NCBI GenBank assembly: GCA_000091205.1 | Contig: AP006493.2 | From: Cyanidioschyzon merolae | Lineage: Eukaryota | Length of the DNA stretch: 64,000 nucleotides | Strand: one strand, 5' to 3' | In this document: positions 1-54,636 of the stretch, piece after piece | Layout of the letters: every line of letters starts with the position of its first letter | How positions within the stretch are numbered: position 1 is the first letter of the stretch | Translations under genes and position numbers: made by a program | The notes under the pieces: generated by a model | The model's input: the letters and a program-made list of their open reading frames with translations, nothing else | What the model was told of the DNA's origin: nothing | Databases searched by the model: none

Positions 1-592
1 TTCCATCCAGGGAAAGGTTTTTGTTATCAAGAGTTTTGAAAGTGAGACGCATCAGTCACGAAAACTCTTTGCGGAAACCACAGTCTATATTCCGGTCTCG
101 ACGTCCCAGTGCGACTCCAGGACCTGTCTGGGAATGCGGTCGTCAAGATTCTGCTGCTCAAACCAGTGCTCGGCGCAACTTTGTCGCTTTGACTCACCGT
201 CAGATTTCTCTGAACTGAGTGTCAAGTCAGGTTTACGTGCCTGTGAGATAGTGCGTTCAGCATCTGCAAGGTGTCAAGAAACGTTTTGGAGAGCTTTGGA
301 GTATACAATAGAAGAATTTGGCTTTCTTCATACACACAAAGTCACACTCCGGTCGTTCTCAACTGGAGCTGGTGGAGACTCCATTCTACGTTCTTTCTGA
401 AGGTAGCGGTCCGCGTTGTGCTTTTTGAAGGCTCACACGAGAGCTTTCAGATCTACAAAACTTTGCATTGCATGGCCTGTATGTTTTGATGCTCGAGACG
501 GCTGTTTTCAACGACACATGAGCTGTAACCTTGATACGCGTGCTCGCTGTGAGAGACCTAGCGTGGTGCAACCAGGCAGTACCACAAAGTGT

Positions 593-1468
593 ATGGCGAA
601 CTCGCTGCTCTTCCTGTACAGAGTTTTATCGGTCTTTGTTTTGCTCGGTGCAGTAACGTACCTCCGCGTGTTTCAGCACGATCTTTCTTTAATAACTTTC
701 TCATCGCAGACTTTAGTTCTCCTCGCTGTTTCATTGACAACGCTTCATTTGGTAGCGCTGCTTAACTGCCGACGATCGAGGTCGCAGCCCATCATGATAG
801 CCTTATCAAGAGACGTTCATGCAGAGCATCATTTTCCAGAACTCGAGGCGGACGTATCGCCACAGTTCGTGTTGGACGATGTGGAAGAAGGTAGCTCTGG
901 TACGGCGGACACGTCAATTTCGCGGGAAATGGAGCGCTCGAAGACAGTGCATTCGGTGTCGATGCATAATCGGGAAGACTCGGTTTCGATGTGGCAGCAA
1001 TATCCCGCCCATACCCGGTCCGAAGCGCCTTGCTCCAAGTTACCAGCTTTCGTCGAGAGCGTGTTTCTCCTGGCATTGGCAAATTCAATTTTTCTGGATG
1101 CCGTCTGGTGGCTCATATTACGCCCGCGGGGGGAGCCTTCTGCGCCTCGACGGTTTTCGACGTATTTGCTACATGGACCGATTAACGTTATCATGGGTTC
1201 GATGGAAGTGTTGATCGGCACGATCAGAGCTCGTAGAGCAGCTCTGGTTATGGGCTCACTATATCTAGCGCTGTACTTTTTGTTCGCATTCATGTATCAC
1301 CAGGCACGAGGCGAATGGTTATATTTTTTCCTGAACCCTCGCTCACGGAGGAATTGGTTCATTCTAATCGGCCTAGTGAGCTGGTACTACGCCTGCTATG
1401 CGCTGATCTTCCTCGTGGTCGCTGCACGTGACTGGATGAAGGTCCGACTCGCATTGCGCGCAAAATAG
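593..1468 (+). CDS. Hypothetical multi-pass membrane protein. The ORF track runs 416..1468; the likely start is the ATG at 593.
   Basis: A 350 aa ORF with about five long hydrophobic segments, for example LLFLYRVLSVFVLLGAVTYL, LPAFVESVFLLALANSIFLDAVWWLIL and FILIGLVSWYYACYALIFLVVAA. I recognised no family signature. Confidence 0.35.
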   Translation: MANSLLFLYRVLSVFVLLGAVTYLRVFQHDLSLITFSSQTLVLLAVSLTTLHLVALLNCRRSRSQPIMIALSRDVHAEHHFPELEADVSPQFVLDDVEEGSSGTADTSISREMERSKTVHSVSMHNREDSVSMWQQYPAHTRSEAPCSKLPAFVESVFLLALANSIFLDAVWWLILRPRGEPSAPRRFSTYLLHGPINVIMGSMEVLIGTIRARRAALVMGSLYLALYFLFAFMYHQARGEWLYFFLNPRSRRNWFILIGLVSWYYACYALIFLVVAARDWMKVRLALRAK

Positions 1469-1885
1469 CACATCGCAAACGCCACTTGTCCAGGATGCGA
1501 CTTCTGTTCACGTTGCATCGCAGCTGAAGTTTCGGAAAACGCACAACTCCGTCACGAGCGGGTTGAGCCTAACGATCGCTTTTCTGCTCAAGGAAGGAAA
1601 CCGATGCGCAGAGTCCAGCAGCAAGCAGTATACCTAAAGAGCGCTCGCGTGCAAGGAAGGTGACCTTGGCACCTAAAGTAGCGCGCTCTTGAGTTGGCAT
1701 CTTCCGTTACACATCGAATTTATTGTGTGTTGGTTGCTAGCTGGATCGTGCACAGCAGCGAGTCGCTGTTCCAGCACAAAATTTCCGCGGGCAATGAGTA
1801 TTATAACTAGAAATCACAAAACGGGTTCTGAGTACCCGCTCATGCAAAAAGAGAGACTATTGCTTTGGTGATTCCTCTGCAGTTC

Positions 1886-3754
1886 TCAGGAATACTGACC
1901 AAAAGATTGATATGCCTCTCTGGCTAACCGCGCTTGTTTGTCCTGACAATATTCCCTCCAGAGCAGGAAAAGAATGATTCCCCCGAGTAGGATCATCGCT
2001 GAAGCGAGCACAATAATGACACCGATTACGCTGCGAAGATTCCGCTGGGTGTAAAACTCCAGGCGCCACGTATTCGGATTTGAAGGGTCCTGGGGATAGA
2101 TAATAGCAAAAGAGTTCGGCAGCAGATTTGTCCACGAGCGCTGACTACTACCGGCACCGATCGCAATTTCCTGGACATAATTCAGCATCGTGTTCAAACC
2201 AGTGAAACACTGGCATGCCGAAATGAACTGCCGAGAACCCGACTGGGGACACTGCGTGCATGCATAGAGTTGCAACCCGTTGGTCGCTTGGAATGCAACG
2301 ATCGATGTCGAACCGATGGATTCGGTGAAAGGCCGCGGATTATCGTACGGGGATACCGCCGTTTGGACTGCTGTTTCAAGGAAGTTTCGTGTCTGCGAGA
2401 TCGTATTCAACCAGAGTTCAATCCCATCTGATGCACTAATCAACAGATCCTGGCGACCATCCTGATCTGTGTCGTATGCTGCGGCAACAACCGGCTCAGA
2501 CACGTTGTACAAGGCACTGAAGGATTCTTGTGTTTGTAGCTGAAAAGCGAGACTGTTTTTCTGGGCAGTATTCTTGAGAATCACACCAGTGCTGCCGTTC
2601 ATCACGTACAAATCTGGGAATGCATCGTAGTTGTAATCTACAAGCACCATTTGTGCGCTGGGACGGAGAGGCACATTCGAAGCACCAGACGAACTTGATA
2701 TAGCAACAGCCACAGAATTCAGAAGATTCGCAGAGCCATGGAAGTTGCAACGTTGACCATAGCCACCATTACCGTGGTTGTTACTCACGAACGACAGCCC
2801 CCCATTGCTTGTCAGAGCTAGTATGCTGATCGTGCCTGATCCCGTAAAATCCGCGAACAACAGCTGCTCTACCTGAAGTGAACCTCCAAATGGCGTCCAA
2901 ACCTTGCTCGGTGTCGTTGACGAGAGAATATCCCCCGTCCCCGGACTGTACCAGACTGCGATTTGTGGGCCTGATCCTGTGGCGGAGGGAGGCCCTTGTG
3001 GCGGTCCTTCACGAGAGCGCGGTGGCATCGGATTCGGCTGCAACCGGCTGCTGCCGTTGCCATCACTGCACAAAAGAACAAGATCTGGTAGACAGTCGCC
3101 ATTCATGTCAACGAAAGCAGTAATGTTTTTCTCGATGGAACACAGAGCCGGAGTCCACTGCGATAATTGGAAGGTCCCTTTGGCTTTGCGTCTGTTCGTC
3201 AACACAAGGAAGCTCCCATTCCCCTCAGGAACAAGCACATCAGGAAGAAGGTCTCCGTAGCGGGAAAACAGCATTGCAGTGGAAACATTTGCGTTCACAG
3301 CAATGCTCGCGCCGGATGAAAAGTTGCTAGAGTGACTACCGAGCAATAGTGCCGCTGTACCTGCGTTTGTGAAAGCCATGACATCGCTAACGCCATCACC
3401 GTTGAAGTCTGCTGTAATGGCATGTGTCACATTCTCTGTCAATAAAACAGGACTCCCGAAACGATATAGATTGTGGTTCCAGAAAGATACGTATAGCCTG
3501 CCGGTGGTTGGCTCTATGGCGAGAACGTCGATGTACTCATCCGCGTTCAGATCAGCGAGCTTCAGAGGTTGAAGACGGCCAAGTACGTCTAAGCTCACAT
3601 AAGCAGTTGCGTTTGAAAATGCAGCACCATTAGGAAAGCTCGGCGGGCCACGGCTGCCACTCGGACCAAGCAGTGAAGCAGTAGTACCCGAAGAAACCCA
3701 AAGGAAGCAGACTACCAAGAGCGCACTTGCCAACAAATAGTGTGCCGTCAGCAT
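1886..3754 (-). CDS. FG-GAP repeat, integrin-alpha-like type I membrane protein (ITFG1/TIP-like)
   Basis: An N-terminal signal peptide (MLTAHYLLASALLVVCFLWVSSG). Repeated FG-GAP/Ca-binding-like motifs FNGDGVSDVMAF, DMNGDCLPDLVLLC, DYNYDAFPDLYVM and YDTDQDGRQDLLIS. A C-terminal TM helix (VIGVIIVLASAMILLGGIILFLLW) followed by a short tail. Confidence 0.55.
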   Translation of the reverse strand: MLTAHYLLASALLVVCFLWVSSGTTASLLGPSGSRGPPSFPNGAAFSNATAYVSLDVLGRLQPLKLADLNADEYIDVLAIEPTTGRLYVSFWNHNLYRFGSPVLLTENVTHAITADFNGDGVSDVMAFTNAGTAALLLGSHSSNFSSGASIAVNANVSTAMLFSRYGDLLPDVLVPEGNGSFLVLTNRRKAKGTFQLSQWTPALCSIEKNITAFVDMNGDCLPDLVLLCSDGNGSSRLQPNPMPPRSREGPPQGPPSATGSGPQIAVWYSPGTGDILSSTTPSKVWTPFGGSLQVEQLLFADFTGSGTISILALTSNGGLSFVSNNHGNGGYGQRCNFHGSANLLNSVAVAISSSSGASNVPLRPSAQMVLVDYNYDAFPDLYVMNGSTGVILKNTAQKNSLAFQLQTQESFSALYNVSEPVVAAAYDTDQDGRQDLLISASDGIELWLNTISQTRNFLETAVQTAVSPYDNPRPFTESIGSTSIVAFQATNGLQLYACTQCPQSGSRQFISACQCFTGLNTMLNYVQEIAIGAGSSQRSWTNLLPNSFAIIYPQDPSNPNTWRLEFYTQRNLRSVIGVIIVLASAMILLGGIILFLLWREYCQDKQARLAREAYQSFGQYS

Positions 3755-4021
3755 CCAACTGCGCTCACGTATTTTGGCGCTATGCGGGAGTTCAACACAC
3801 TAGTGTGTCCCTAGGAGCTCTATGTATTCCTGATATGACGGGCGTCGATTCTCTGCGTGTCTGAACGCGCCCTCACGAACTTTTAAGATGGCCTTCCTCT
3901 GCGTGCTGAACGTCGTCGCTCGCAGACAGCCGCGGAATTTTTTGATTGACAAAACGTTTTCATGGGCCAGCTTTCGCCAGTTGTGCGCTTTTTCTTTTCT
4001 TTCTTTTTTTGTTTTCTTCTG

Positions 4022-4440
4022 TGCGCAGTGAAGTATCCATCGATCTGTGCCATAATTCCAAGTTACGTTACCCATCCTTCTTCTCCGATATACTGGTCTT
4101 TTCATACGTTCTATCGTGTACCGAGTGCCTGCCATGAGCTCCAGCAATAGCGCATACAGCACCGGTGCTGCCGCTGCACGGAGGCAGAACGGCGTTGCCG
4201 TACCACGGGGAGTATCAACTCGAGGCGTGATTCATTCAACGTGGAATCCGGATTCATAATCATTCTGGGAGCCTGCAAGCTCTGCAGACAGAACTACTGC
4301 CTGCGGCAGCGCGAAGCGATATGTTAGGAGAGAACTACGACCAGGGTGACGCCCAAACGCAGCATACCCGCTCCTAATCCCAGGATAAAGTGGGTTTCGG
4401 ACGAGCTGCTCAGACCTCTTGACAGCAACGGGCACTGGGG
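4022..4440 (-). mobile_element. SINE-like dispersed repeat, copy A of a ~400 bp family. Its T-rich tract on the + strand lies at the left end, which is an A-rich tail at the 3' end of the minus strand.
   Basis: Shares the core ctggtc(g/t)ttt(c)(a/g)tacgttctatcgtg...gcaccggtgctg(c/t)cg...cacgg(a/g)g with copies at 20440-20935, 48290-48700 (opposite orientation) and 53577-53770. A T-rich tract at 3985-4020 adjoins one end. The other end carries box-A/box-B-like strings when read on the minus strand. Confidence 0.5.
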
Positions 4441-5837
4441 AGCATGAAGCACGAGTCTTGTAGACTCTTCCGACTCGCGGGACCTTCCGTCTATAAGGTA
4501 AACTTTCAACAATATTGAAACCTCTTCCCCCTTTCAACGTTCACCTTAGAGGAGGGAAAGAAATTATTATATCGCTGCTAGTTAGTCTAGAGTCTCTGTT
4601 CTTTGTTCTAAGTAGCGCGCTCGGTACGCGCTGCTCCATATCTGAAAGGCATGAGATACAACGAGCTTTTCGCCGTTGAAGGGAAACACGATCCTGACTA
4701 TTCGTTTACTTGTTGTTCTAACATAAAACTTGTATTTGCATTAAAGTCGTAGCAAACTATAGTTTCCAGTTCAATCGTGTTTCAAAGCTCGAGTTAGTGC
4801 ATTCAAGTGATTTTTCGCAGATTCTACCAGAAGCGCTCAAAGTGCGTACGTTTTCAAAAAGATAAAAAAGGAAAGTTATTGAAAAGGAATTGGAGGATCC
4901 CGGAGACCCAGTATCGCCAGCTGGCGGAAATAAACGACAAACGATGCCGAGCCCGGAAGAAGAGGAGAAGATAAAGAAGGAAAAGGGGAGGCCCGACGCC
5001 AAGGGCCGCAAGAAAGACGACAGTACGATGAGACGGTGGTGGAAGCCTGTCTTCTTAAACATGTAAGGGATCCGCACAAGGAAAATTTGCAAGATGCCAT
5101 AAGAATTCGTGTCCAGTTGTACCCCAGGAGTGTTCGTAAGGTTTCTCTAGGACTGATGCATTTGGTGAACGAGATGTATGGCGACGTGACGGACATCAAA
5201 ACAGTCGAGGTTCTGGGAGACTTATTCGACAAGCCCTTTATTCGTCACCTGATGGCTGGCACCGGGGAAGCGTCGAGGAGAAATGAACTAGTGCATGCCC
5301 TCCAGGAAAACTAAGCCAAACTCCGATTCGACGGTACTCGCACTAGGGTTACTCGGATATTTACATCTACAGAGCGATGAAGTACCTCATGGGCCTGAAG
5401 AACCATATGATCGTGAGCCTCAGTCGTTTCGTGATACGCGACGCCTTTGCGCTGTACCCGGGCCTGTCTCGCAAAGGAATATGGGCAATTATCAATGGCA
5501 TCACTAACGATGGTCAGAACGAAGACGAGATCGAATTTGTCGACAAGAAGACATCAAGCAGGAGAAAGAATGAGGATCCTGCAATCCGTGCGGTTATTCA
5601 AGGGCATCGTGCGGTATTGGGGCCGGCGAATCCAGCAGAAAAGATATCAGAGTTGATAAAAGACGAAGAAAGATACCATCGCCTCATCCTTCGGTATTTC
5701 GCGTTTTTGGACCGAGAACTCGAACGCAAGGCAGAGATGAAGCTGAGTAGGGGAAAAATGAAGAGTCGGAGAGACGGAAGGCTGCCCTAATCGTTAAGCG
5801 CTTCACCGTCGTTTCGCTGTGCAACATCAAGTCATAA

Positions 5838-6950
5838 TTTGTGACTATCGACTCCGGACTCCTCTACGGTATCATGAAGGAGATCAGTCCCGAGTTCAAT
5901 GTTAGCAGGGAGGAGTTTACCGGTGAAAACAGGGAGACGCACTGGAAGAACATCTTCAGTTTCAAACGTCTGAACGTGAGCAAGCAGAAGTTCTTCACTG
6001 GGATGATCGAAACCGATGGAGTAGCCATGTGTGTAAACTATCGGCGCTAGAGGACAGATCATCCATTTCCGCCCCCGGTTTCGCCCGTGACGAAGGAAGA
6101 AGAAAAGAAGGAGGCGGATCCTGCGATGCAGAAAGTGCAGGATAACGACTTTTTGGTTGGCGCTCACCCCGGAAACACAAATATCATAACCATCGCTGTA
6201 CCCAGGCGTGCGGAGGATGGTACTGACGGTAACTTGCTTCAGAAAGACATGCGTTTTTTGAGGTTCTCGAGAGCAAGATTCTATCGAGAATCGGGAATCA
6301 TGAATGCAACGAAGAAAATTGAGACATGGAATGCAGGAATGAAGGATCACGTAGAAGCTTTGAGCGAGGTGACGAGCCGCGGAGCGGACTTTACAGCTTT
6401 TCTGAAATTCATGGAAGTTCGTGTTGCCCATTGGGATGCGCTGCCGGAGAAGTATACCAAGCCCCGGTGGGCTCGTCTGCGAATGAATCTGTATTGTGGT
6501 AAGCAGCGGGCGTTCGCGAATTTTTTCAATCAGCTGAGTGCCCTGAAGGAGGACGAGAGCCAAAGGCTCGTAGTGGCGTATGGAGCAGTGCGATGGAAGA
6601 CCCAAAGAGGGTGTACACCAGTTCCAACGACAAGATCGTACAAGGAGTGCGCAAGGCGTTTCGTCACGATACCTATAGATGAGTTCCGAACATCGTACAC
6701 ACACCATGAACTGGGGTGCACACTTCAGAGGGTCGAGATGGAAAAGTGCCAGAGGAGTCCTGAAGATATAAAAAAGTACGGACCGCTGACGGAGGAGCTA
6801 ATGGAAAGGAGAGCGAAAGTTCGAGGATTGCTTGCATTAGTAAGTACAACCATTAATGGCAAGAATCGTTTCGAGTTTGTGAATCGAGACTCTAACGCCG
6901 CTATCAATATATGGAAATGTGCTGTGATGGATCCAAAACCTACGGAGTAG
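5838..6950 (+). pseudogene. TnpB/Fanzor-like (OrfB_IS605 family) RuvC-nuclease relic. A single reading frame carries an in-frame TAG at 6048-6050. The first ATG is at 5874.
   Basis: A C-terminal ...NGKNRFEFVNRDSNAAINI matches the RuvC-III signature RDxNAAxNI of TnpB/Fanzor/Cas12. The preceding [15 protein letters not shown]...C resembles the vdp-yTSq-C zinc-finger/bridge region. [27 protein letters not shown] resembles the segment before RuvC-II, but the glutamate is missing. [17 protein letters not shown] resembles the RuvC-I motif GIDPG with D replaced by H. The frame is closed by TAA at 5835, and the upstream ORFs at 5036-5790 sit in other frames. Confidence 0.55.
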
Positions 6951-7217
6951 ACAAGAGGGGACTTTATTAGACAACCTCTCAAAGTGGATATATATGAAAC
7001 AAAGTTGGAATCAGTAGTGGATGGCCGATCGAAAAGGACGGGAGGCATCTGCACCTCGGTTGCACACGTCTTGTCTAGGGCGGGTTTCTCGCCACTGCTG
7101 TGCACCGCTGGCGTCGTTCGACTTTCGAACGGCGTTGTTGGTGTGCGGTTTTATAAAGTTAACGTAACTGCTATCACTACAGGGAGTTGAACTGCCCGGG
7201 AACCTTAACTTGTTGCA

Positions 7218-8384
7218 ATGACTCCGCCGTTCTTCTGCCACACCTTCTGTTCAGCGGGGGCGTTTGTCCCGGTGAACGTAAGCCACTTTCGTGCTCAGTT
7301 GAGAAAGCAGGAGACTTGTGAGGAACTTGCTTCGAGGGACGCTTGGGGTCGCTCCAGAAGCAGGGGGAACTGTTTGCATGGTAAGAACTTGCCGAGCAGG
7401 CACCGGCAAGCGTTGCTTTTACTTGGAACGGCGACTGCAGGCTCCAGTGCAGAGGTTCGACACGGCTCGCCAAAGTCGCGAACCACCGAGGCAGTTGAGT
7501 TCCTTCTCGCTAAGAGGGCCTCCATAGACGCCGCTCTTAATGACGCCGTGCAAGCAACCTCCGTTATGAATGCCCGCCTAGCGGAGGCGATGCGTTACTC
7601 TTTGCTCGCCGGAGGGAAACGTGTACGGCCGGCACTCGTCTTAGCTGCGTGCAGAATGTTTGGAGGTGTCGATGAACAGGCGATGCCCACGGCCGTCGCA
7701 GTGGAGATGGTTCATACAATGAGCCTCATTCATGACGATCTCCCGGCGATGGATAATGATGATTTCCGGCGCGGACGTCCAACAAACCACAAGGTTTACG
7801 GTGAGGAAGTAGCCATCCTTGCTGGGGACGCGTTACTTAGCGAGGCGTTCTCGCAGATCGCAGAGAAAACTCCAGCAACCCTTGTACCACCGAGTCGCAC
7901 GCTTGAGGTCATTAGACGCCTCGGAAACTGTGTCGGCTTACATGGCTTGGCAGCCGGACAAGCGCTTGATCTTGAGGCGGAGGGAAAACCAGCAGATGAG
8001 ATCAGCCTACGCATGCTGGAAACGATCCATCTGTACAAAACCGCCGCATTGTTGCGCTTTTCCATCACCGCGGGAGCGATTCTAGCAGGTGCCTCAGTAG
8101 ATGACATTGATTGTATGGAAAGCTTTGCGAACAAAATTGGTCTTGCTTTTCAAGTTGCGGATGATGTCCTGGATGTGACCGCGACGACCGAGACACTTGG
8201 CAAGACTGCCGGAAAAGATGTTGCGGCCGAGAAGGCGACGTTTCCGCGCATACTTGGTCTTGAAGAAAGCCGAAAGTATGCTGAAGACTTGGTCAAGGAG
8301 GCGAAGGGAGAACTCGCCAAGTACGGCGACCGGGCATCATTGCTCTTGGGTTTTGCGGATTTCATCATTCAGCGCGCGAGCTAG
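7218..8384 (+). CDS. GGPPS: Geranylgeranyl diphosphate synthase (type II, plant/bacterial, trans-polyprenyl synthetase) with an N-terminal extension
   Basis: First Asp-rich motif LIHDDLPAMDNDDFRRGRPTNHKV, which is DDxxxxD with the 2-residue insertion typical of plant/cyanobacterial GGPPS. Second Asp-rich motif FQVADDVLD. About 85 aa of Arg/Ser-rich presequence before the conserved core. Confidence 0.85.
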   Translation: MTPPFFCHTFCSAGAFVPVNVSHFRAQLRKQETCEELASRDAWGRSRSRGNCLHGKNLPSRHRQALLLLGTATAGSSAEVRHGSPKSRTTEAVEFLLAKRASIDAALNDAVQATSVMNARLAEAMRYSLLAGGKRVRPALVLAACRMFGGVDEQAMPTAVAVEMVHTMSLIHDDLPAMDNDDFRRGRPTNHKVYGEEVAILAGDALLSEAFSQIAEKTPATLVPPSRTLEVIRRLGNCVGLHGLAAGQALDLEAEGKPADEISLRMLETIHLYKTAALLRFSITAGAILAGASVDDIDCMESFANKIGLAFQVADDVLDVTATTETLGKTAGKDVAAEKATFPRILGLEESRKYAEDLVKEAKGELAKYGDRASLLLGFADFIIQRAS

Positions 8385-11715: not shown

Positions 11716-14287
11716 GGGTCCGGTATATGCTGATTGTTTGAGGCGATTTTTGGAGTAACGAAACCAGCCTTGTCGGAACGGATCGTATCCGAGAGGAGCT
11801 GCTGCGCGAGGGCTCAAACGATGCATACAGGTTCCTGTAGATGGTACATTTGCGCAGTGAACACCGTTTTCCTGGGGCGCATGTACGCCTGCAGAAGATC
11901 CACTTGAAAAATCAGAAGTTATGTACGCGAAGAGCTAACATGCGGAAGAGCAGTTCCGTTGTTTCTCAACCTCTGTGCGTCTGGGACATGCGAACGTTAA
12001 ACTTACTGAGCTTGCGTAAAGTGCCGCATGAAGAGCTGCGAAAATGACAAGACCATGCATACTGTCGTGAGCGCGGTGGACGCGATTGGCCACCTCTGGA
12101 CAATCTGTAGCGGAGTTGGGTGCGCTATCCTGCACTTGTATGGATTAGCACAGCGAACTTGGTGAAAAGGTGTTGTTCTTCAGTGGAAAGGCAGCCGCTT
12201 TACGCTCGCGCAGGGAATTCATCGACGAATCGTGGATGCGGTTCATGTGGTGAAAAGTTCCCGCCGAGAGTGGGAAATGATGATACTTTATGTTTTCGCG
12301 GAAGCTCCATCGAAGGAGAGAGGATTCATGCAGCAGTCGATCATCGATCGAGATCACACAACAGGCATTTGGAGATCGCTTAAAACTACTCAATATGGTT
12401 AACGGCACCAGAGTTTTCCAAAAATGTGCGAGCAAGAAGCAGCGTGATCCTGAAAGGGATAAGAGTAAAAGCCTTTGTGCCGAGCTTCAGGGTGCACTGG
12501 AAGCGATCCACATCGGTTGCATGGCATGTTGTTTAGGAGTTCAGCATCGAGCTCACTGCTACCGGCGACAACTCAGGCTGGATTTGTACTCAAGAGCCGT
12601 CCATAATGTAAACGCTCAATGGAGCGAAACTGTCTCACAACCATAGTGTAAATTAATACCTACCCACAGACGCCACGCAGCCTTTTTGACCAGCCGTATG
12701 CTATCTGTTACAGCTGCTGCTTGTACATCTCCAGCCTGAGAGGCTGCCCCACAAAGTTCGATAGTGTCTGATCCTTGGATCTCGTCTTCAGCAATCCACA
12801 TCGTCTGATGTTGACGGCGGTGTTGAAGTCTCGGTTTTACGGACTACATGCGTTTATTGCATCTGGTTGAGCTCATCAATGCAAGGATTCCCAGAACTCG
12901 CACCCTCTGGCCCACAGCAGCCTCTTCGTCGTCCCGTCGGGCATACACCTTTTTTTCTATGTCCCTTCTTTTTCGCATTCTTCTTTTTCACTTGCTTTTC
13001 GTCGTTAACTGGTCGGCAAGCTGCGGATGTTTTCACATTTTCCGGCAGCCGGCAATGGCGGAGCTCTAGGATGCCTCACTTCAATGCCAGTACCTTTCCC
13101 CTGGATTTTTTATTTCCTCAAATGAAAGCAGTTCTTTACGACCTTAAACGAGAGAGTTTCCAGAGGGAGACGGAATTGCAGAAGAAAGACGAAATGTGTT
13201 CCAGTCTGCCACCGTATACTGACCGCTTCAGCGATTCGCTCTGGAAAGCGACTGTTAAGTTTTGCGACAAAAGACCCTTCTTCGATATGGTCAAATCGTC
13301 GAGTCCACGCAGGAATGAAAAGCAGTTCTCCCCCAGTAGAATCCGCAAATGCTCAAACGCAAGAGGAACCGTGAAATGCAGCGTTGTCCGATAGACGGAC
13401 GTCGCCAGACGGCAGCGGAAAGTGTTTAGTTATTCGAAGATGTGGTTGGTACTGCTGGATGAGCCTTCTCTATGAGTGAAACTGATGCCACCAAATGAAT
13501 CCACTGCAGCGAGAACCGATGATGGCGCCCTTTTCTTAGAGTTCAGTCGAACATTCAACGGGCTACCGCTCCGCGAATTCCCATACATGCTCCGAAATTT
13601 TCGTCCGAAACACTCCTCATAGACTGAAAAAAAACCAACGTGCCGCTGCTTCATATCGATAGAACCTTTCCTGGAACTTTGTTGTAGTAGCGATTTCGGT
13701 AGACGCTGGCCGTGGATGAACTAGGACTCCTGTTTTGCGACTGAATCCCAGTGTTTTCAGCACAATATGAACAAGTTGTTGAGAGACAGAGACGCTCTTG
13801 GTGGCTAATATAGTTTCTTTCAGCTCCCGTAAGGTGATCAACAGCTCGTTTTCTATCTTTGACAGCAAGCAGTTCTCAGTAATATCGGTACTGGGCGCGG
13901 GTTGCATATACGTGTTTCTTTCTGTGCTCCTCAAGCACCTGCGTATTGTTATATCACTGAATTTAAGAAGGAAAACAGTCCTCGTCGCTCTGTTGAGCAA
14001 AGCATATGTCCTGCGAACAATTCGTGTATGGTATATAGAGTGCATTGCATCGTGATTTCGATTTCCTGATATACACTGCGAAATAATATTCTGTCACACT
14101 CAGCGGGGGCGGAATAAAACTCAGCAGAACGTTTATAAGGCTTGCAGATTCAGAAATGGGTTTTATGAAGCACTCTTGACGATGTCACAGACAGTCACTT
14201 TGTTCTCCAGGTTCGCACGGTTGAGCACTCGACATGCACCACAGAGATAATGAGCTAACTAGATACGTCACGAGGTTGCGGTTTGCC

Positions 14288-14866: not shown

Positions 14867-17800
14867 TGCTGCTAAAGAGACCCGAGCGCAAGCTGAAAAG
14901 TGTGTGCCGTCGCATTTATGGCTGCACCGATTGACGTGCGTCGTTACAGAGCGCGTCGCTGGGATCTGCGACTCCTGCCAGCGCTAGGGCATAGATGGCG
15001 TACTATGCCAAGCCATCATCCTACATTCAGTACGCGCAGGGCACCATGAGAAGCTAAAAAACTGCGTATAGAATAAAGGCCTAATATGCGGCCCTATAAT
15101 CCAGCGTGCAGTACGAATAGGGCAGCACGGGAGGCTATCATCCTGTGTAAGTTTGCATGGATTAGCATTTGAAGCGACCGTCCAGCGTGACCAGAGAGCG
15201 CGTTCCGCCGCCAGTACTATACGTAAGCGCATCAAAAGCGCTGCGTGCAGGGCCACCACCCGACTCCATAACGAGGACACTGCCTGTGGCATGGAGTTGT
15301 CGGGAAAAAATGTCTGTCGCTGCGAGGCTGCATTCGCTGCACAGAGCCGGGACAGTCGGGAATGTTGCTCACGTGATTGGCATTTGCGAAACTCGTGTCA
15401 CTGGAACTGGCCTTAACTTCGATTCTATGAAGACAACCTGGGAATGGCGTCGGTGAAGATGTGATCCTCTGGTACGGAATGGAAGCTACTCCAGGTCGCA
15501 TTCTCGGCTTGATGGGCGCCTCAGCCAATAGCGGGAGCCAATGTCGTTCAGAGTCCACTATGCGAGACTGGAGGTGGAGGCTCGAAATCCCATTTTGTGG
15601 GCGTGTGTGCGTTGCAGAAGTACGTTCCTCGAAATTTTCCGGGAAGTATATATACATATATCGAAAAAATGGATGAACAGAACGCCATTACCGTTCATCA
15701 GCTGCAAATGAAAATCGTTCCCTGTGTCTATCTAGGGCGCTCTAATATTTCTGGATGAGTAATCCGTACCGCACCAGTGCGTTGCTTCAGGCGTGCATGC
15801 AATGAATCTCTCCTAGTCACCAAACTATATTATCCAAAGTCTTCCGCTTTCCATGTAATGCGCTCATTGAGTACAACACAACTACATCACACATTCACTC
15901 GACACAAATCTGCTGGACGCGCTCGCACTTCTAGGAATCTACAGATGTTTATCGTGGCGTTCAAGTCTCGACGCGGAAACTGCTTGCACGCTTGGTTGGT
16001 GGTGAAAGCACACTGTAACGAGCCTCGAAACCTCGACTGCATCGACATCTGATGCTCGGAAAGCTTACCCTGCACAAGCTCGTGCATCCGCCTCCATCTC
16101 ACGCGTTTTTTCTCTGCCTGTTTCAGCGTGCACCTGTGCTCAGGATGCGTGTGCATCGTCCTGAGCAAATCGATGGTCATGATGAAGAATCAGTTCTCGC
16201 ACTAGTTGTAAGCTCCAGTCGAAGGAGCAGGACATCAGCATTGGAGTGTTCGCGCATGCTCAGCGCCATCGGCTGCTGCTGTAGGATGCGACTTATCTGT
16301 CAGTCGCTTTCCGACTCATGAGATAGACTGGCGAACGCATGCGTCCCGCCTCCGTACAGCCTGGCCCGCAGGCGGTCCTAACGCGGTCTCGAGTGTTCGT
16401 ACCGTACTTCGCCCGCATGAGTGATCTAGATACCAATGTACGCGCGTCATGAGGCGTCGAGGGGTGCTCCCTCTGTTCGATACGGTACTCAGGGCGTCTA
16501 GAAGGATCCTCACGCCGCATGCCGCTCGTCAATATGCCTCCTGCGGTCCATCATGCCCAACTCTCGATGACGCCCAGCCCCCGAACTGCTGAGCAGCCCG
16601 ATCCGCTTTCCGTTCGGTTCTTTTGGTCGTTTCTTCTCATTCTCAGGTGCGGCGACCGCGAGGAGGCCCTTCAACGCGGGATCCACACGCATCCCAAAGT
16701 GCGCCTCCTGTTCGACTCTATACGAGGGACAATGAGTCTCGCGTGCCCGACTCAGGCGTAGCCATCGGAAAATCTATGCAGATTGATATTCTGTCGGCCC
16801 CCATGGTTCCTCTAAGTTTCTCTCCATTTGCTCCGTGTGGATGAGAATTCTTGGACGCGCTCGCCAGACGCTCTTCACAAAGTTGCCTGTGTGCTTCCTA
16901 TTTGTGCGCAGACACCAGCAGCAGCTCACTGAAAACGCCATACACTACCGAGCTGGTTTGCGGTGATATGGTGGCCATGATCTGACTGTTGGGTACCGCA
17001 TCGAACAGACGCTCAAGGTAACTGGTGCGCTCGGACTCGCGACGGGATTCGGCGCTGCTCTGGCGCGCTTCGTTCAGGGACAGGTGCTGGCGTAAGGTAC
17101 ACGGAACGAAGGCATCGCGCTTCCACCATTATTCGGACGCAATGTCCGTGGGTGCGAATCTGAGAGCTACGCAGTGAGCTCGGACGATCTAGACTCACTA
17201 TCGCTCTGTTCATGACGTCTCCTACGAACTTGCAGCCAACTCGATGTCCTCCGACATTGGCGCCCCGTTGGCCTCCATCAACACCCCAAGAAAGCCTGCC
17301 ACCAATCGTCACTTTTGCGGTCCAGCGAGCAGCTGCCAGATCGCCCCCGGGATGCGTCTCTTGAAGCGCTCGACGTTGGCCGGCAAGCTGGTTCCGTTTT
17401 CGCTTCGCGGTTCGTTTGATGCTTTTCTGTACCAGCGCTGCAGATGTCCCGATCTTCCACGTCGTGCAGCTACTCGTCAAGGTATTCTGCGAAGCGGGTG
17501 AGCAAATCTCTGCTCCTGCAATCAGGCCGCATTCCAGCTCCGGTCCCGATTATCAGTTGCTTTGCCGTGCATAGGTTCGATCGGAATTTCCAGAGGAATC
17601 AGGACAGACGGGAGCCCCGCGACCGAAAGTCGTGCGAGTAGTTGTCTGAGGGGCTGCGTCAAGCCAAGGCACGCAAGATGAGTCTTGCCCGAAACAAGCT
17701 TCGCTTTCCGAATGCCGTCCAGCATCTCGCTTATTGGGGAATACTCTCCGTTGACGTGTTTCAGTAGGGTGGCCTCGACAATGATTTCAGAGTTTGCTGT

Positions 17801-20439: not shown

Positions 20440-20935
20440 CCGCCGGGTTTTTTTTTGCCGATGCCGAAACGCTTTTATAAACCATCGATCCCAGATTGCC
20501 GGATGGATGGATTTTAGCTTTCGGGAAAGCGTCCATCATGCTGCCACACCAAGATCCATGACCTGTTCTCGGATGTAATGGTCTTTTTGTTCGTTCTATC
20601 GTGCACCCAGTACCTGGTTTGCCGCACCCGGCTTAACTCTTATATCTCGCTGGTGCCGATGCATCATGGAGACAGAGCGACTTTGCTGTGCCAGAGAGGG
20701 CATCGGCTAGAGGCGTGTTGCACTCGACACAGGATCGGAGAACACAAGCACTCTGGAAACCTGCAAGCTGTACATATAGCCCTGCTGTCTGTAGCAGCGC
20801 GAAGCTGTATGGTAGGAGTCTACTACGACTAGTGCAACGCCCAGGAAACGCTTTACGACTCCTAGTCCGAGAATAAACTGCGTTTCGAACGAGCTTCTCA
20901 GGTCTCTTCACAGCACTAGGCACTGGGAAACGTAT
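20440..20935 (-). mobile_element. SINE-like dispersed repeat, copy B
   Basis: Colinear with copy A (4022-4440), including ggtc-ttt-tgttcgttctatcgtg and gcaagct...gcagcgcgaagc...ctacgac. A T9 run at 20448-20456. Box-B-like cgttcgaaacg and box-A-like cctagtgctg on the minus strand near 20860-20930. Confidence 0.5.
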
Positions 20936-22247
20936 GTATCACTGGCCCGGAAGAGTCGTCCGGCTGCCTGGAGCTTTCCCCAAGAGCATAAACTATCGAG
21001 AATACGGAAACACTTTCACGTTTTTAACGTTTCCTGTAGTGGAGAAGTGAACTATTTTCGATCTGCCCTATGTGTAGGCCTCTGCCCGGAACATCGAATG
21101 CAGTGCACCGCGTGTATAGCCCTGTTTTAAAGGACACTGAGGAGACAAAAGCGAATGGCAAGTATGGTGTATTGAGCGCTGTCGACCGGCCGGAATGAAA
21201 TTTGAGGTCGAGTGTGGGAGCTATGGAGGGGATTCCTATCGCCAGCTGTTGCAAACTGGCAGCCGTAAGCGTTTCTAGTCAAGCACAGGGGCTCGTTTAT
21301 CGGTCGCTACCACCATAGCGTGAAAGCCTGCTGCAGATTCAAGTAGATACGGATTGAGGACTTGTCACTGGCGTGCGTCTCCACACCCGCTTTTCCAGGA
21401 GATCAGACTTCGTAAAAGAGGGCATTGTTTGGGCATACGAGTGCCGAGTGACTGAATGCGGGACCGCACGCCGTGCTCTCCTGGAGAGACCCTGAGTCTC
21501 AATGGTATCCATTTCGAAAGAACGTTCTGTTCTGGTCTGGAGCGCCCCGAGCGGCGCCCGTTTAGCTGTTGCTTCCGCGTTGGTCGAGACGCGTTTGCGG
21601 TAGTGCGGTCTACTGCTACAGCATCAATGGTATGGTGCTGTCACGCATGCAACTTGGAATCGTTTTAGCGATATTCACCTGAGCGGAAACTTGTCCCACG
21701 CAGAGTGGCCTGGCCATGGATATCGAGCGCAAAAACGCGATACGTCTAGCATGTTGGGCTGCCTTGCGAATTACCAATATTTTCTTGCCGTTTCGTGCCT
21801 CGGCGCTCTCATATAAGCAAATAGCACCCAATGCCTATGTGCGCCCACGCACAGTACGTAGTGATGCGTCCAGCCACACAAGTTGTGGCGACGTGCTGGT
21901 TCCATTTTGGGTAAAGGATCCTCATTGCTTTCCTTGTCTTGAAACATAGGACGTAATATGCGTGGTGCCGTGTCTCCAGAAGCACTCCAGTTCCTGTCAG
22001 CCGAGTATCGCGGTTTTCCTCATCTCAGAACATACGACGCGTGACGCGCTACACCTAGTCCGCTTCAAAGAAGCTTCGTCTTCCATCGTAACGAACGCAT
22101 GATTTTCTCATTCGTTTTGAAATCAATGCTCATGTGGAGATCTTCCACCTAGCCCATACAAAAGCGTTCTCGCTTTTAACAACGGCGAGCAAAAGCATAA
22201 CTGTATCTGTCTAGTCGCCAGAGAAATGGTGGACAGCAGCGAAGGCC

Positions 22248-34335: not shown

Positions 34336-34895
34336 TCGATGAGAGCAATATACATAGTGCAGAAATCGATTCTACACGATTCTCATCGGTGCGTTCGGGG
34401 CGAAACCCACACATCATGGCACCGGATGCACACTGCAACAGGCCGAGAAGAAGAGCTTGAAACCGAGCCGACTGCACGAGATGGTACGCTGCAATTTGGT
34501 CGAACGTCACATGGCGAGGCTACCGATGGCTGAAGCCTTGCACGTCTGTGATTCACTCTGCAACGGTGCGCGCGCAGACGTGCTGCACCGAGTCTTGAAC
34601 GACTTGTGAAACAGTCCAAGATATCTGGTGCCTCTGCGGCGTCCAGTGGATTTGTGTCGAACGAACGCTCATGGTAATCGTTTAGCGCACAGCGTAGGCA
34701 TTGGCTGAACGGCAGAAGACTTTCGATTGAGAAACCAGTCATCAGGAGCCAAACGATACGATGTTCGCCCGATGCAAATCACTGATGTGGAAAGAGATGG
34801 CAATCTCAAAGGGCTAGAGCGCCGTATATCGAGACTGTGATCGTTTTCCCATGGCAACTGCTTAACGATAGTGTTATTCGACTATTCGATGTTCC
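34336..34895. repeat. Left arm of a ~560 bp inverted repeat whose partner is at 43128-43688
   Basis: The reverse complement of 34336-34895 matches 43128-43688 base-for-base apart from a few SNPs. ORF translations in the two arms are identical except at 3 residues. Confidence 0.9.
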
Positions 34896-43127: not shown

Positions 43128-43688
43128 GGAACATCGAATAGTCGAATAACACTATCGTTAAGCAGTTGCCATGGGAAAACGATCACAGTCTCGATATACG
43201 GCGCTCTAGCCCTTTGAGATTGCCATCTCTTTCCACATCAGTGATTTGCATCGGGCGAACATCGTATCGTTTGGCTCCTGATGACTGGTTTCTCAATCGA
43301 AAGTCTTCTGCCGTTCAGCCAATGCCTACGCTGTGCGCTAAACGATTACCATGAGCGTTCGTTCGACACAAATCCACTGGACGCCGCAGAGGCACCAGAT
43401 ATCTTGGACTGTTTCACAAGTCGTTCAAGACTCGGTGCAGCGCGTCTGCGCGCGCACCGTTGCAGAGTGAATCACAGACGTGCAAGGCTTCAGCCATCGG
43501 TAGCCTCGCCATGTGACGTTCGACCAAATTGCAGCGTACCATCTCGTGCAGTCGGCTCGGTTTCAAGCTCTTCTTCTCGGCCTGTTGCAGTGTGCATCCG
43601 GTGCCATGATGTGTGGGTGTCGACCCGAACGCATCGATGAGAATCGTGTAGAATCGATTTCTGCACTATGTATATTGCTCTCATCGAA
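43128..43688. repeat. Right arm of the ~560 bp inverted repeat whose partner is at 34336-34895
   Basis: See the left-arm entry. The inner ends face the 8,232 bp spacer. Confidence 0.9.
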
Positions 43689-48289: not shown

Positions 48290-48700
48290 CGTCCGTGTGC
48301 CAGGCCTCGTCTTCATGTTTTCGAAAGCATACGCATGCGAGACGCAAGCTTTGCGTTCCGAAGGAGTTTACGATCTAACACCTGCGGTTGCGCTCAGCAC
48401 AGACTTCGCAGGCCACCTGCTGTCGGTGCTTCGGGCGGATGCATCCGACTCATCCTCGAGCCGACGCCTTTTGTGGTACGGTAACGCCGTTCTGTCTCGG
48501 TGCAGCGACAGCACCGGCGCTGTAGGCGCTATTGCTGCCGCTTTCGGCAGGCTCGGCACACGATAGGACGTACGAAACGACCAGAATATCCGAGATGAAG
48601 TATAGGTAATATAACATGGGAGTAGGGGGTTGATGGATACCTCACCTCGCACTGAAAAAAATAACACAAAAAAGTAAGAAAAGAAAAATGCGCATAATCG
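48290..48700 (+). mobile_element. SINE-like dispersed repeat, copy D, in opposite orientation to copies A to C, with an A-rich tail at 48655-48700
   Basis: The reverse complement of 48480-48640 matches ctggtcgtttcgtacgtcctatcgtg...gcaatagcgc-tacagcgccggtgctgtcgctgcac of copy A. An A-rich stretch gaaaaaaataacacaaaaaagtaagaaaagaaaaa follows. Confidence 0.5.
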
Positions 48701-53476: not shown

Positions 53477-53576
53477 GCAGACGGCTAACAGCTGAACCCC
53501 GATCTATAACGTTTCGATGAGAATGTTTCTTATTTGACAAAAATCTTTACACAAGCCAGCGTTCCCCGATTGTGTG

Positions 53577-53770
53577 CTTGGTATCAGCGCGCAGTAAAGC
53601 ATCCGTCGTTCCACCTAATTCCAAGTTCCATTACCCATTTTTTCTCGGATATACTGGTCGTTTCGTACGTTCTATCGTGCGCCTAGTGCATGCTGTGGGC
53701 GTCCGCGGTAGCGCCAAGAGCGCCGGTGCTGTCGTAGCACGGGGACAGGACGGTTTTACCGTCCACAAAG
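53577..53770 (-). mobile_element. SINE-like dispersed repeat, copy C (partial or diverged)
   Basis: gcgcagtaaagcatccgtcgttccacctaattccaagttccattacccattttttctcggatatactggtcgtttcgtacgttctatcgtg...gcgccggtgctgtcgtagcacgggga is colinear with copy A at 4022-4200. Confidence 0.5.
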
Positions 53771-54636
53771 AGCGACGGCAAACGAGGGTAAACTGATACA
53801 AACGCGCAGACGCCTCCCAGCCTTTCGACAAGCCACCTACTATCAGCTTCGGCTTCTCCTTGCACACCTCTACCCCGAGAGCCTACCCCACAAAGTTGTA
53901 TCCTATCAGCCCCTCGGGTCTCTTCTTCAGCAAAGCATATCTCATGATATTGTTGGCGGCGTTGACGTCGCCGTTCAAGAACTCGATGCGGTTTACTGCC
54001 TCTACTGGAACTCATCAGCGCAAGAGTACCTCGAGCGCGTGCCTTCTTTGCCACCAAAGTCTCGATATCGTCCTGTCGGGCAAAGAATCCTTTTCTCGCG
54101 TATCTCTCTTCTTCTTCTTCGCTCGATGCTCGGCGAAAGTGGATTTTTAGCGGGTCCGAGCTGAATTCGTTGGGATTTTTAGCGTTTTCTTCGGCAGTCG
54201 ACGATGATGGCCCTCCGGGATCCCCAACTTCCATGTCTGTAGTGTTCCCTCGGATTTGTTAAGTTTACAAATGAACGCACGTTGAACATGTCTGCTACAG
54301 ACTGCGACGAAGCATTTGATGACACGCACCTGGGGACGGGACACGATTGCGTTGAAGAACTGCAGGAAATCGGGTAGCGGCCCGTGCTCCCCAGCGAGAC
54401 CCCATGAAGTGCAGATGACATGCAGGCCCTTGCGGCCGTCGCGGCGGGCGATTGCGCCCAGCGCGCCACCGACTGCTAATCGGTGCGTACACGGACACGT
54501 GTTCATGGGGCGCGCCGATCGCCTGAGCGACCGGTCGCTCGGGCGATCCGGACAGTCGAGGGGTCCGCGTGGCGGCGGGGCGCGCATGAGGCCCTGCGCC
54601 TGCTGCCCGCAACGCTGACCGCATGAACGGTGCTGC

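Follow-up and report, generated by a model that had tools for sequence, protein, structure and literature searches.

The closest described system to the locus examined here is CMe-1A, a Fanzor1-carrying repeat of Cyanidioschyzon merolae reported by Bao and Jurka in 2013 (Mobile DNA 4:12; PMC3627910) as ~150 copies of ~3 kb, at ~80% identity and without TIRs, its 5' 635 bp being TE-N2_CMe. That paper predates omegaRNAs and does not contain a right-end RNA module, and neither a CMe-1A omegaRNA nor an activity of the CMe-1 protein was described in the literature searched. SpuFz1 (8GKH, 9CEU-9CEZ) and PpFz1 (9CF0-9CF3) share the fold of CMe-1 (E 3.7e-11 to 3e-9, TM ~0.5) at only 14-16% identity. 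SpuFz1 loci are edged by 30-nt inverted repeats, which CMe-1A lacks, and the expandable acidic repeat before RuvC-I is a feature of CMe-1 as compared with both proteins. Fanzor2 (IS607-like; amoebae, giant viruses and molluscs), for which a solved structure has been published (PMC11832414), is like CMe-1 a eukaryotic TnpB relative with a rearranged catalytic site, but it is TnpB-sized, has a small REC domain and is linked to serine recombinases, whereas CMe-1 has 734 aa and a large helical N-terminal half. Prokaryotic TnpB (e.g. of ISDra2, IS200/IS605) is, as CMe-1, a RuvC nuclease with an RDxNAAxNI RuvC-III motif, and in TnpB OMEGA systems the right end of the transposon encodes the guide RNA, which overlaps the gene or comes after it, an arrangement also predicted for CMe-1A. 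ISDra2-type TnpB has the canonical RuvC-II Glu, where CMe-1 has Gly and an alternative Glu 33 residues downstream; TnpB also lacks the NLS-like N-terminus of CMe-1, and the TnpA partner found in IS elements is absent from CMe-1A.

The window analysed here, a 64,000-nucleotide stretch of C. merolae contig AP006493.2 (assembly GCA_000091205.1), encodes proteins identical to C. merolae 10D BAM80450.1 (CYME_CMK056C), BAM80451.1 and BAM80461.1, three exact matches that comprise CMK056C, GGPP synthase and BAM80461; the host is that of CMe-1A, Cyanidioschyzon merolae nuclear DNA. The CMe-1A consensus DNA and the CMe-1 protein were taken from the supplements of PMC3627910. By pairwise alignment, positions 4-3169 of the published 3,169-bp consensus correspond collinearly to window positions 3947-7134; the two are 85% identical, 16 indels of 1-23 nt separate them, and the aligned stretch lies in the intergenic space between the divergently transcribed CMK056C and GGPP synthase genes, the latter 69 bp downstream of the element. 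A 15-copy majority consensus built here independently gave the same ORF as the published one, which is the single ORF of the 3.2-kb element; tnpA is absent. The window copy shares with CMe-1A the species, the 734-codon ORF, the 5' 635-bp module and the absence of TIRs and of a recognisable TSD, and differs from the consensus in a lost start, four frameshifts, five stops and D431H. Judged from these alignments, window 3944-7149 is almost certainly one dead full-length CMe-1A insertion of ~3.2 kb. The feature is therefore already known: CMe-1A was catalogued in 2013, and the ORF flagged by the first-pass annotation is a broken copy of it. The parts of the element are as follows.

3944-7149, plus strand: decayed full-length CMe-1A copy (non-TIR repeat, Fanzor1-carrying), from consensus alignment, copy-homology limits and right-end hairpin
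3944-4603, plus strand: 5' module, consensus 1-635 (consensus 635 maps to 4603), also found as the separate short repeat TE-N2_CMe
4604-4877, plus strand: AT-rich internal non-coding stretch, presumed promoter/5' UTR, collinear with consensus ~636-905
4878-7078, plus strand: CMe-1 (Fanzor1) coding relic, 734 codons in the consensus, from codon-by-codon projection on the published consensus

The extent first assigned to the feature, 5036-6950, covers a relic that proved larger, since the element runs from ~3944 to ~7149, the ORF relic from 4878 to 7078, and 6950 marks a premature TAG. Homology between copies starts near 3938-3947 and stops sharply near 7136-7149, and the right end was placed at 7149 because of a conserved hairpin. 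These homology limits and the consensus alignment rule out the element end that had been suggested within 4540-5000; that stretch is internal and lies upstream of the start codon, the ends being near 3944 and 7149.

What is added here to the known element is a hairpin module in the sense-strand RNA, part of which lies past the published consensus end. A search of the flanks for a structured 3' end, suggested in the first-pass annotation, yielded a conserved, strand-specific two-hairpin module of 71 nt (7079-7149), which reaches 15 nt further than the published consensus; the latter breaks off within the 3' arm of the longer hairpin, at window 7134, while copies remain conserved to ~7149. The module consists of the following.

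7079-7093, plus strand: small 6-bp hairpin directly after the stop codon, GGCGGG-UUU-CUCGCC, from folding and covariance alignment
7097-7149, plus strand: long 24-bp hairpin, G-U-rich, element right end, from folding and a covariance model

Folded as RNA, the plus strand gave -42.7 kcal/mol (z -6.5) and the minus strand -20.4 (z -1.7); in 23 of 24 copies it was the plus strand that folded more stably. RNAalifold, applied to right ends aligned with MAFFT, predicted hardly any structure, since that alignment had put the hairpin arms out of register; per-copy folding, a self-versus-cross arm test and covariance-model alignment were used in its place. With the covariance model, 42 further copies proved to carry the module at their 3' end. 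In the resulting alignment, which was fitted to the structure and contains related sequences so that pair counts must be read accordingly, 85% of cells were paired and compensatory changes occurred in 17 of the 30 pairs, a result equalled by none of 500 shuffles; for the 6-bp hairpin (helix 1), 90% of cells were paired across 37 distinct copies. An Rfam scan of 3800-7300 returned no match. The module occupies the same place (stop codon to element end) and has the same size as the SpuFz1 omegaRNA scaffold, which has been defined experimentally, whereas the omegaRNA of CMe-1 is a prediction. From this positional and folding analysis, 7079-7149 is put forward as a candidate omegaRNA scaffold. The fuller proposal, that a red-algal Fanzor1 lineage working without a Cys4 zinc finger uses the 71-nt module as its omegaRNA scaffold, is advanced tentatively; if it is true, the published CMe-1A consensus is truncated within its omegaRNA, and a still-active RNA-guided nuclease would be encoded by intact copies in C. 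merolae, a moderately thermophilic and acidophilic alga.

The same hairpin could instead be a DNA-level transposition signal (Helitron-like or IS200/IS605-like, acting as ssDNA) or an mRNA 3' end or terminator, which we regard as unlikely. CMe-1A has neither TIRs nor TSDs, in common with Helitrons and IS200/IS605 elements, which bear terminal hairpins, and Chlamydomonas Fanzor1 genes are located in Helitrons (supplementary table, PMC3627910). As ssDNA the two strands folded at -18.7 and -13.6, and the top strand still beat its shuffles (z -3.9); against a signal in DNA, however, the sense RNA is about twice as stable as either the antisense RNA or the ssDNA, at 7 of 30 positions no pair is commoner than G-U, which accounts for 23% of outer-stem pairs, and place and size of the module fit the SpuFz1 scaffold. 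The module could be a terminator and an omegaRNA at once. For the candidate omegaRNA, a course of events in active copies can be proposed by analogy with other, previously studied Fanzor1 and TnpB systems: the CMe-1 protein would enter the nucleus via an N-terminal KKRK-type stretch and bind the 3'-terminal hairpin RNA as its omegaRNA, whose guide would be read-through into the DNA flanking the right end; CMe-1 would then cut matching, TAM-flanked DNA, and this cleavage would favour retention or spread of the element. In the dead window copy, the RNA module could at most be transcribed.

The protein was assigned by profile and fold. The translation of ORF 6087-6950 (plus strand) ends in STTINGKNRFEFVNRDSNAAINIWKCAVMDPKPTE and a stop, and carries near its C-terminus NRDSNAAINI, the RuvC-III signature on which the first-pass annotation had based its reading of a Fanzor/TnpB-type RuvC pseudogene in a eukaryotic nuclear genome; that reading is borne out by CMe-1A identity and by the Fanzor1 matches given here. 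Single-sequence searches were negative: the ORF pieces and six long homologues matched no relevant Pfam family, and the ORF pieces matched nothing in NCBIfam or among PDB sequences, so the Fanzor link rests on profiles, fold and the published assignment. Built from close copies alone, profile A1 had no PDB match; profile A3, which combined the family with relatives at 26-41% identity taken from an exhaustive HMM search that yielded 1,463 relatives, matched Parasitella Fz1 (9cf0, E 8.5e-20) and Spizellomyces Fz1 (8gkh, E 1.9e-14) by hmmsearch against PDB, and the link thus appeared only once these relatives had been added. An AlphaFold model (pLDDT 78) had as its top seven Foldseek matches in PDB structures of SpuFz, PpFz and GtFz, all Fanzor1 (E 3.7e-11 to 3e-8, TM up to 0.55); Cas12 proteins ranked next, far behind. 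The significant structure matches were all Fanzor1, with no Fanzor2 structure among the fold matches listed and no TnpB among the significant profile or fold matches listed. A precomputed PF26935 (DUF8286) tag on homologues was weak and uninformative. Profile, fold and published assignment together show that the CMe-1 family belongs to Fanzor1, and the relic was recognisable as a Fanzor from sequence alone although Pfam, NCBIfam and single-sequence PDB searches missed it.

Residues of the RuvC site were placed by codon projection and by alignment with SpuFz1.

6165-6167, plus strand: RuvC-I Asp431>His, GAC>CAC, GADPG>GAHPG, from codon projection
6582-6584, plus strand: canonical RuvC-II position Gly570 (VVAYG), Gly in the family consensus too, aligned to SpuFz1 VVMGDW
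6681-6683, plus strand: alternative catalytic Glu603, GAG, IDEFRTS, kept, aligned to SpuFz1 E541
6888-6890, plus strand: RuvC-III Asp672, GAC, NRDSNAAINI, kept, aligned to SpuFz1 D606

The D, E and D columns of CMe-1 coincide with SpuFz1 D383 (PMC11423790), E541 and D606 in an alignment to Fanzor1 of the kind that the first-pass annotation had called for, and both the RuvC-I Asp and the Glu603 columns are invariant in 29 diverse relatives. The catalytic Glu of Fanzors is the alternative one in a DE(F/Y)xTS motif, E541 in SpuFz1 (PMC11423790, PMC10530073), and in their rearranged RuvC-II the canonical Glu has become Gly or Pro (PMC10530073). The Gly at the canonical RuvC-II position of CMe-1 is, on this alignment, the Fanzor-type rearranged site and not decay, and the catalytic triad of the family is D431/E603/D672, of the same rearranged type. 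The earlier statement that only the RuvC-III Asp is retained therefore fails, since E603 (GAG) is also kept and the canonical Gly is the family state. The replacement of the RuvC-I Asp by His was correctly noticed: the Asp of the DPG motif, present in the family consensus, is lost in the relic (CAC), and D431>H is the only catalytic loss specific to this copy.

These results bear on whether the relic descends from a bacterial IS200/IS605/IS607 TnpB recently transferred to the alga rather than from a eukaryotic Fanzor lineage. The first-pass annotation had left both origins open; the Fanzor alternative holds, and a recent bacterial TnpB is very improbable for a ~150-copy eukaryotic Fanzor1 lineage. 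RDxNAAxNI and yTS motifs are common to TnpB, and two distant relatives gave a sub-threshold match to PF07282 (Cas12f1-like TNB domain). Against a recent TnpB stand the best profile and fold matches, exclusively Fanzor1, the Fanzor-like exchange of the canonical RuvC-II Glu for Gly with an alternative Glu in DEFRTS, a long extension at the N-terminus that contains KKRK, a consensus without tnpA, and the ~150 dispersed copies at ~80% identity, which imply an old, resident family. Within the N-terminal 45 residues, the consensus contains AAGKKRKTVP and KTKKQKREARRQR, and the window copy GNKRQT and KIKKEK.

The TNB domain, placed between RuvC-II and RuvC-III, departs from that of the structurally related proteins. 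SpuFz1 and PpFz1 keep four Cys, whereas CMe-1 has HH..C...C and the second Cys pair is gone: the family consensus reads HHELGC...C and RGLLALVSTT in place of CxxC...CxxC, so that the Cys4 ligands are absent, and consensus and window copy alike show ...EKC...RGLLALVSTT. Given this loss, activity as a nuclease appears uncertain even for intact CMe-1. Other Fanzor1 TNBs also vary (that of GtFz1 is smaller), so the missing Cys weakens confidence in activity, not in homology. Just before RuvC-I lies the acidic repeat, of which other copies have 1-5 units (protein alignment) and over which blastn depth is ~2x.

6086-6163, plus strand: acidic peptide repeat, one in-frame unit (KHEDEKEADPATQEVEDNDFVV-like), from protein alignment and blastn depth

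The coding relic has its start codon changed from ATG to ATT (4878-4880) and its original stop, TAG, at 7076-7078; codon projection gave 475 identical, 91 synonymous and 160 non-synonymous codons, 5 stops and 4 frameshifted codons. The disabling lesions are listed below.

4986-4987, plus strand: 1-bp deletion, codon 37 (consensus alignment)
5312-5314, plus strand: premature stop, Tyr146 TAC>TAA (codon projection)
~5339-5340, plus strand: 1-bp deletion, codon 155 (consensus alignment)
5344-5346, plus strand: premature stop TAG (codon projection)
~5749-5750, plus strand: 1-bp deletion, codon 292 (consensus alignment)
5835-5837, plus strand: premature stop TAA (codon projection)
6048-6050, plus strand: premature stop, Leu392 TTG>TAG (codon projection)
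6948-6950, plus strand: premature stop, Leu692 TTG>TAG, ends the flagged ORF (codon projection)
~7038-7039, plus strand: 1-bp deletion, codon 722 (consensus alignment)

The frame of 6087-6950 continues upstream as 5841-6050, closed by TAG 6048-6050. This in-frame TAG had been recognised from the outset; as a single stop it was an undercount, there being five premature stops and four frameshifts. Homology to the N-terminal half of this protein was found in ORFs 5036-5314 and 5377-5790, which occupy the two remaining frames, in agreement with the first reading of 5036-5790 as a frameshifted N-terminal portion. An intron around the TAG at 6048 is ruled out by collinearity with the one-exon consensus, which reads TTG (Leu392) there between collinear flanks. 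Intact copies, also suggested as a target of search, were not found: no intact 734-aa ORF occurs in the window copy or in the 82 fetched loci, 80 of which are metagenome copies, and the longest open stretch among them covers residues 139-700. Against the consensus, dN/dS was 0.41 for the whole ORF and 0.22 for its RuvC half; as it was measured against a family consensus, the low value reflects selection before the death of this copy. The window copy is unable to make a nuclease and is neutral filler; as one of ~150 decayed copies that makes no protein, it carries little weight in itself.

It is scarcely credible that the locus is a domesticated, catalytically inactive Fanzor-derived host gene, expressed as an RNA-guided DNA binder with the TAG spliced out or read through. 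Such a gene could show a RuvC-I Asp changed to His in an otherwise well-conserved RuvC half (dN/dS 0.22), and the 287-aa ORF has a 99%-identical copy in an environmental strain; that copy, however, is the orthologous locus of a related strain, and the low dN/dS is of pre-death origin. Moreover, nine disabling lesions are spread across the ORF and the start codon is lost, the TAG replaces a sense codon in a collinear coding sequence whose family ORF has one exon, and the locus is unannotated in 10D, where the accession numbers of the neighbouring genes follow directly on each other. That an unrelated ORF contains a DSNAAINI-like string by chance, with which the absence of single-sequence Pfam, NCBIfam and PDB matches would agree, is refuted by the full-length collinear match to a Fanzor1 element and by the Fanzor1 profile and fold matches.

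Outside the coding relic, the 15-copy consensus holds no long ORF in the 4604-4877 stretch, and the 5' module contains a 23-nt T-rich insertion (4003-4025) specific to the window copy. A search of the window for TIRs and TSDs found no inverted or direct repeat joining both ends, so that the terminal inverted repeats looked for at the suggestion of the first-pass annotation are lacking, and no TSD was present around 21 left and 36 right ends. Immediately 5' of CGATGAC, left ends share a conserved T-run, which may represent the element end or a target preference. The left flank weakly resembles the right-end loop (TTTTTCTTTTGA), a likeness from which no TSD or terminal-repeat model resulted.

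Protein homologues of the flagged ORF numbered 274, at 54-99% identity, and CMe-1A is carried by 80 metagenome loci. By-products of use for testing a red-algal Fanzor are the right-end hairpin, which is the obvious omegaRNA candidate, the Cys-poor zinc finger and older relics in the window. More fragments of CMe-1A lie inside the window, and a solo copy of the 5' module is found at 20459-21032. At least two much older Fanzor1 pseudogenes, at 15899-17562 and 43324-45292, were also seen in the same 64 kb, from which it follows that C. merolae has hosted more than its single listed Fanzor family.

The ORF at 6087-6950 (+), read from sequence by the first-pass annotation as part of a TnpB/Fanzor-like relic, ends on translation with NGKNRFEFVNRDSNAAINIWKCAVMDPKPTE followed by a stop. 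A TAG at 6048-6050 interrupts its frame, which is open again upstream, and the ORFs at 5036-5314 and 5377-5790 each lie in another of the two remaining frames; the ORF, its motifs, the TAG and the out-of-frame upstream ORFs had thus been described accurately. Searched singly, the ORF pieces gave only chance-level matches in Pfam (E 0.18, 0.25) and none in NCBIfam or PDB sequence searches. At the protein level, 274 relatives were found (54-99% identity); all are unnamed proteins from metagenomes, and many are truncated. The consensus of their alignment, of which VNRDFNAAINIR is part, shows the RuvC-I His of the window copy to be a copy-specific change.

At the DNA level, comparing the region with 80 related loci by blastn delimited a repeat unit of ~3.2 kb, whose right edge is sharp (near 7136-7149) and whose left edge falls near 3938-3947, and a majority consensus of 15 copies yielded one long ORF beginning MEKEVEDPGGPVSPAARKKRKT. 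The reference consensus (3,169 bp) and protein of CMe-1A were taken from the supplements of Bao and Jurka 2013 (PMC3627910), who described ~150 copies in C. merolae that each share ~80% identity with a consensus of ~3 kb, with TIRs absent, TSDs not determinable, a 734-aa Fanzor1 protein (CMe-1) encoded in one exon, and a 5' 635 bp that forms a separate repeat, TE-N2_CMe. Window 3947-7134 is collinear with consensus 4-3169 (85% identity, 16 indels of 1-23 nt), and the protein of the independent 15-copy consensus is nearly identical to published CMe-1. The flagged feature is a relic of this catalogued, already known transposon, and calling it a Fanzor relic was correct and well reasoned. Window ORFs match exactly CYME_CMK056C (BAM80450.1), GGPP synthase (BAM80451.1) and BAM80461.1 of C. 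merolae strain 10D. The copy lies between the divergent genes CMK056C (start 3754, - strand) and GGPP synthase (ATG 7218), whose intergenic region it fills; as these flanking genes have consecutive accession numbers, it was not annotated as a gene. Locus L001, an environmental Cyanidioschyzon contig (ENA ERZ27247228 k141_353601), is 99.4% identical over window 3800-8000, relic included.

Lesions were mapped by codon-by-codon projection of the consensus ORF onto window 4878-7078.

Lesions and landmarks of the window copy (codon projection)
4878, +, ORF start: start codon lesion, ATG>ATT
near 4986, 5340, 5749 and 7039, +: 1-bp deletions
5312 (TAA), 5344 (TAG), 5835 (TAA), 6048 (TTG>TAG) and 6948 (TTG>TAG), +: nonsense codons
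6165-6167, +: RuvC-I Asp431>His, GAC>CAC
7076-7078, +: original stop, TAG

Given the original stop at 7076-7078, ORF 6087-6950 is a stretch bounded by two premature stops, and the deletions near 5340 and 5749 account for the spread of ORF pieces over three frames. The suggestion that the TAG at 6048 lies in a small intron was rejected, because the gene has one exon and the TAG stands in place of a Leu codon where the coding sequence is collinear. The window copy is inert as a gene. Measured against the CMe-1A consensus, its dN/dS is 0.41 overall and falls to 0.22 in the RuvC half, so that much of the divergence arose in a lineage under selection, with decay afterwards, in agreement with the long-lasting coding capacity remarked on by Bao and Jurka 2013 (PMC3627910).

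Fanzor1 membership was tested independently of that publication. A profile built from close copies gave 1,463 relatives in exhaustive HMM searching, many of 600-700 aa. In an alignment with 26 relatives at 26-41% identity, Asp, Glu and Asp columns are invariant or nearly so, and the profile of this alignment matches the Fanzor1 proteins of Parasitella parasitica (PpFz1; 9cf0, E 8.5e-20) and Spizellomyces punctatus (SpuFz1; 8gkh, E 1.9e-14) and no other PDB chain at a significant E-value. By residue count in the profile alignment, with SpuFz1 numbering corrected for a 394-residue MBP tag, the three columns fall on D383, E541 and D606, the catalytic residues named for SpuFz1 (Xu et al. 2024). 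For the AlphaFold model of a homologue, P0005 (pLDDT 78, pTM 0.67), the seven best PDB matches are SpuFz, PpFz and GtFz (E 3.7e-11 to 3e-8), with Cas12 proteins far behind. The CMe-1 family is Fanzor1.

In Fanzors the canonical RuvC-II glutamate is replaced by Gly or Pro, and an alternative glutamate downstream is used (Jiang et al. 2023, PMC10530073). In CMe-1 these are Gly570 (VVAYG) and Glu603 (DEFRTS motif), both unchanged in the window copy; with this Fanzor-type arrangement intact, D431H is the only catalytic lesion. Of the earlier statement that catalytic positions were substituted and only the RuvC-III Asp kept, the substitution at RuvC-I therefore holds, and two of the three catalytic residues in fact survive. 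The DEFRTS segment, previously taken as the start of a zinc finger, holds the alternative catalytic glutamate. The zinc-finger region itself reads HHELGC...EKC and RGLLALVSTT, in the consensus as well; whereas SpuFz1 has CPRC...C....C and PpFz1 a comparable set, the CMe-1 family is without the canonical four-Cys ligand set. Immediately N-terminal to RuvC-I (window 6086-6163) lies an in-frame acidic peptide repeat of ~22-24 aa (KHEDEKEADPATQEVEDNDFVV-like). The window copy, like the published consensus, has one unit, and 1 to ~5 units occur among copies (homologous region of loci L002-L083); the region is disordered in the P0005 model (pLDDT <50, residues 257-309).

The published consensus breaks off at window 7134, midway along the 3' arm of a conserved terminal hairpin. 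Similarity among copies continues several bases past this point, and in most copies the sequence 3' of the T-rich loop is complementary to that 5' of it; the true right end of CMe-1A appears to lie ~15 nt further on (window 7135-7149).

Right-end module of the window copy (folding)
7079-7093, +: 6-bp hairpin
7097-7149, +: 24-bp hairpin

As + strand RNA the window module folds at -42.7 kcal/mol (z -6.5, a stability matched by none of 200 shuffles), as - strand RNA at -20.4 kcal/mol (z -1.7) and as ssDNA at -18.7 and -13.6 kcal/mol. Over 24 copies the mean is -22.1 (+) versus -13.9 (-) kcal/mol, the + strand being more stable in 23; G-U makes up 23% of outer-stem pairs, and pairing is better between the two arms of one copy than after arms are exchanged among copies (8/5,000 permutations). 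Seeding a covariance model with the window sequence and that of L001, its near-identical orthologue, recovered the module in 42 more copies, in each at the 3' end. In the resulting alignment, which was fitted to the structure and consists of related copies, 85% of cells are paired versus 31-48% with partners slid, both sides have changed in 17 of 30 pairs, G-U predominates among the pairs seen at 7 positions, and none of 500 shuffles reached any of five measures. One difference between L001 and the window (column 70 of the 77-nt module; window G, L001 A) turns a U-G of the terminal hairpin into U-A.

The 71-nt module occupies the interval from the original stop to the right end of the element. 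The equivalent interval of S. punctatus Fanzor1 loci encodes an omegaRNA scaffold of 75 nt, past which transcription continues into the guide; by this analogy we regard the module at 7079-7149, with moderate confidence, as the likely omegaRNA of CMe-1A. Alternatively, the hairpin could be an mRNA 3' structure or a DNA-level transposition hairpin. An Rfam scan of window 3800-7300 gave no matches, and the literature searched showed no link between C. merolae and omegaRNA; the module is an addition to the published description of CMe-1A. The direct results here are the identity of the element, the lesions it carries, the family it belongs to and the conservation of its RNA fold. By extension from work on SpuFz1, PpFz1, GtFz1 and TnpB, active copies would form a nuclear Fanzor1-omegaRNA complex that would cleave DNA with a flanking TAM and a match to the sequence beside the right end, and such cutting would favour persistence of CMe-1A.

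Other Fanzor-related pieces in the window
15899-17562, -: much older Fanzor1-like pseudogene, keeps RRDLNATINI (protein-level similarity)
43324-45292, -: much older Fanzor1-like pseudogene, nearly full length, just after the Xrn1-like gene (protein-level similarity)
34349-34684, +: Fanzor1-like fragment, noted with the two older pseudogenes
20459-21032, +: solo 5' module, consensus 1-575, TE-N2_CMe-like, 75% identity (homology to CMe-1A)
12667-12907 (-), 48453-48626 (-), 53535-53779 (+), 53802-53993 (-): CMe-1A 5' or 3' fragments (homology to CMe-1A)

The two pseudogenes contain many stops and resemble CMe-1 and its relative P0161 at the protein level only (~26-39% identity). Since Bao and Jurka 2013 (PMC3627910) list a single Fanzor family for C. 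merolae, they may represent undescribed older families. A hairpin model search found no second right-end hairpin in the 64-kb window, and the solo 5' module is accordingly without one. Within the 5' module of the CMe-1A copy, a 23-nt T-rich (TTTC/TTTT) insertion at 4003-4025 is specific to the window copy relative to the consensus.

As published, no TIR or TSD was detectable between the ends of the window copy or in the flanks of other copies. The AT-rich sequence at 4540-5000, proposed earlier as an element end, is internal and non-coding and leads up to the start codon. In the window copy (3930-3946) and in 20 other copies, the consensus start CGATGAC is always directly preceded by a run of 5-9 T, in many cases with GA before it; this run could be unrecognised terminal sequence, reflect a preference for a target site or TAM, or form a short direct repeat of the termini. 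A similar sequence, TTTTTCTTTTGA, stands in the loop of the right-end hairpin. Two loci (L022, L037) contain head-to-head CMe-1A pairs with left ends ~130 bp apart, and in seven (L017, L018, L031, L049, L060, L074, L077) the first ~270 bp are inverted directly upstream of a copy starting at consensus ~730; both arrangements are structural variants of the CMe-1A 5' region.
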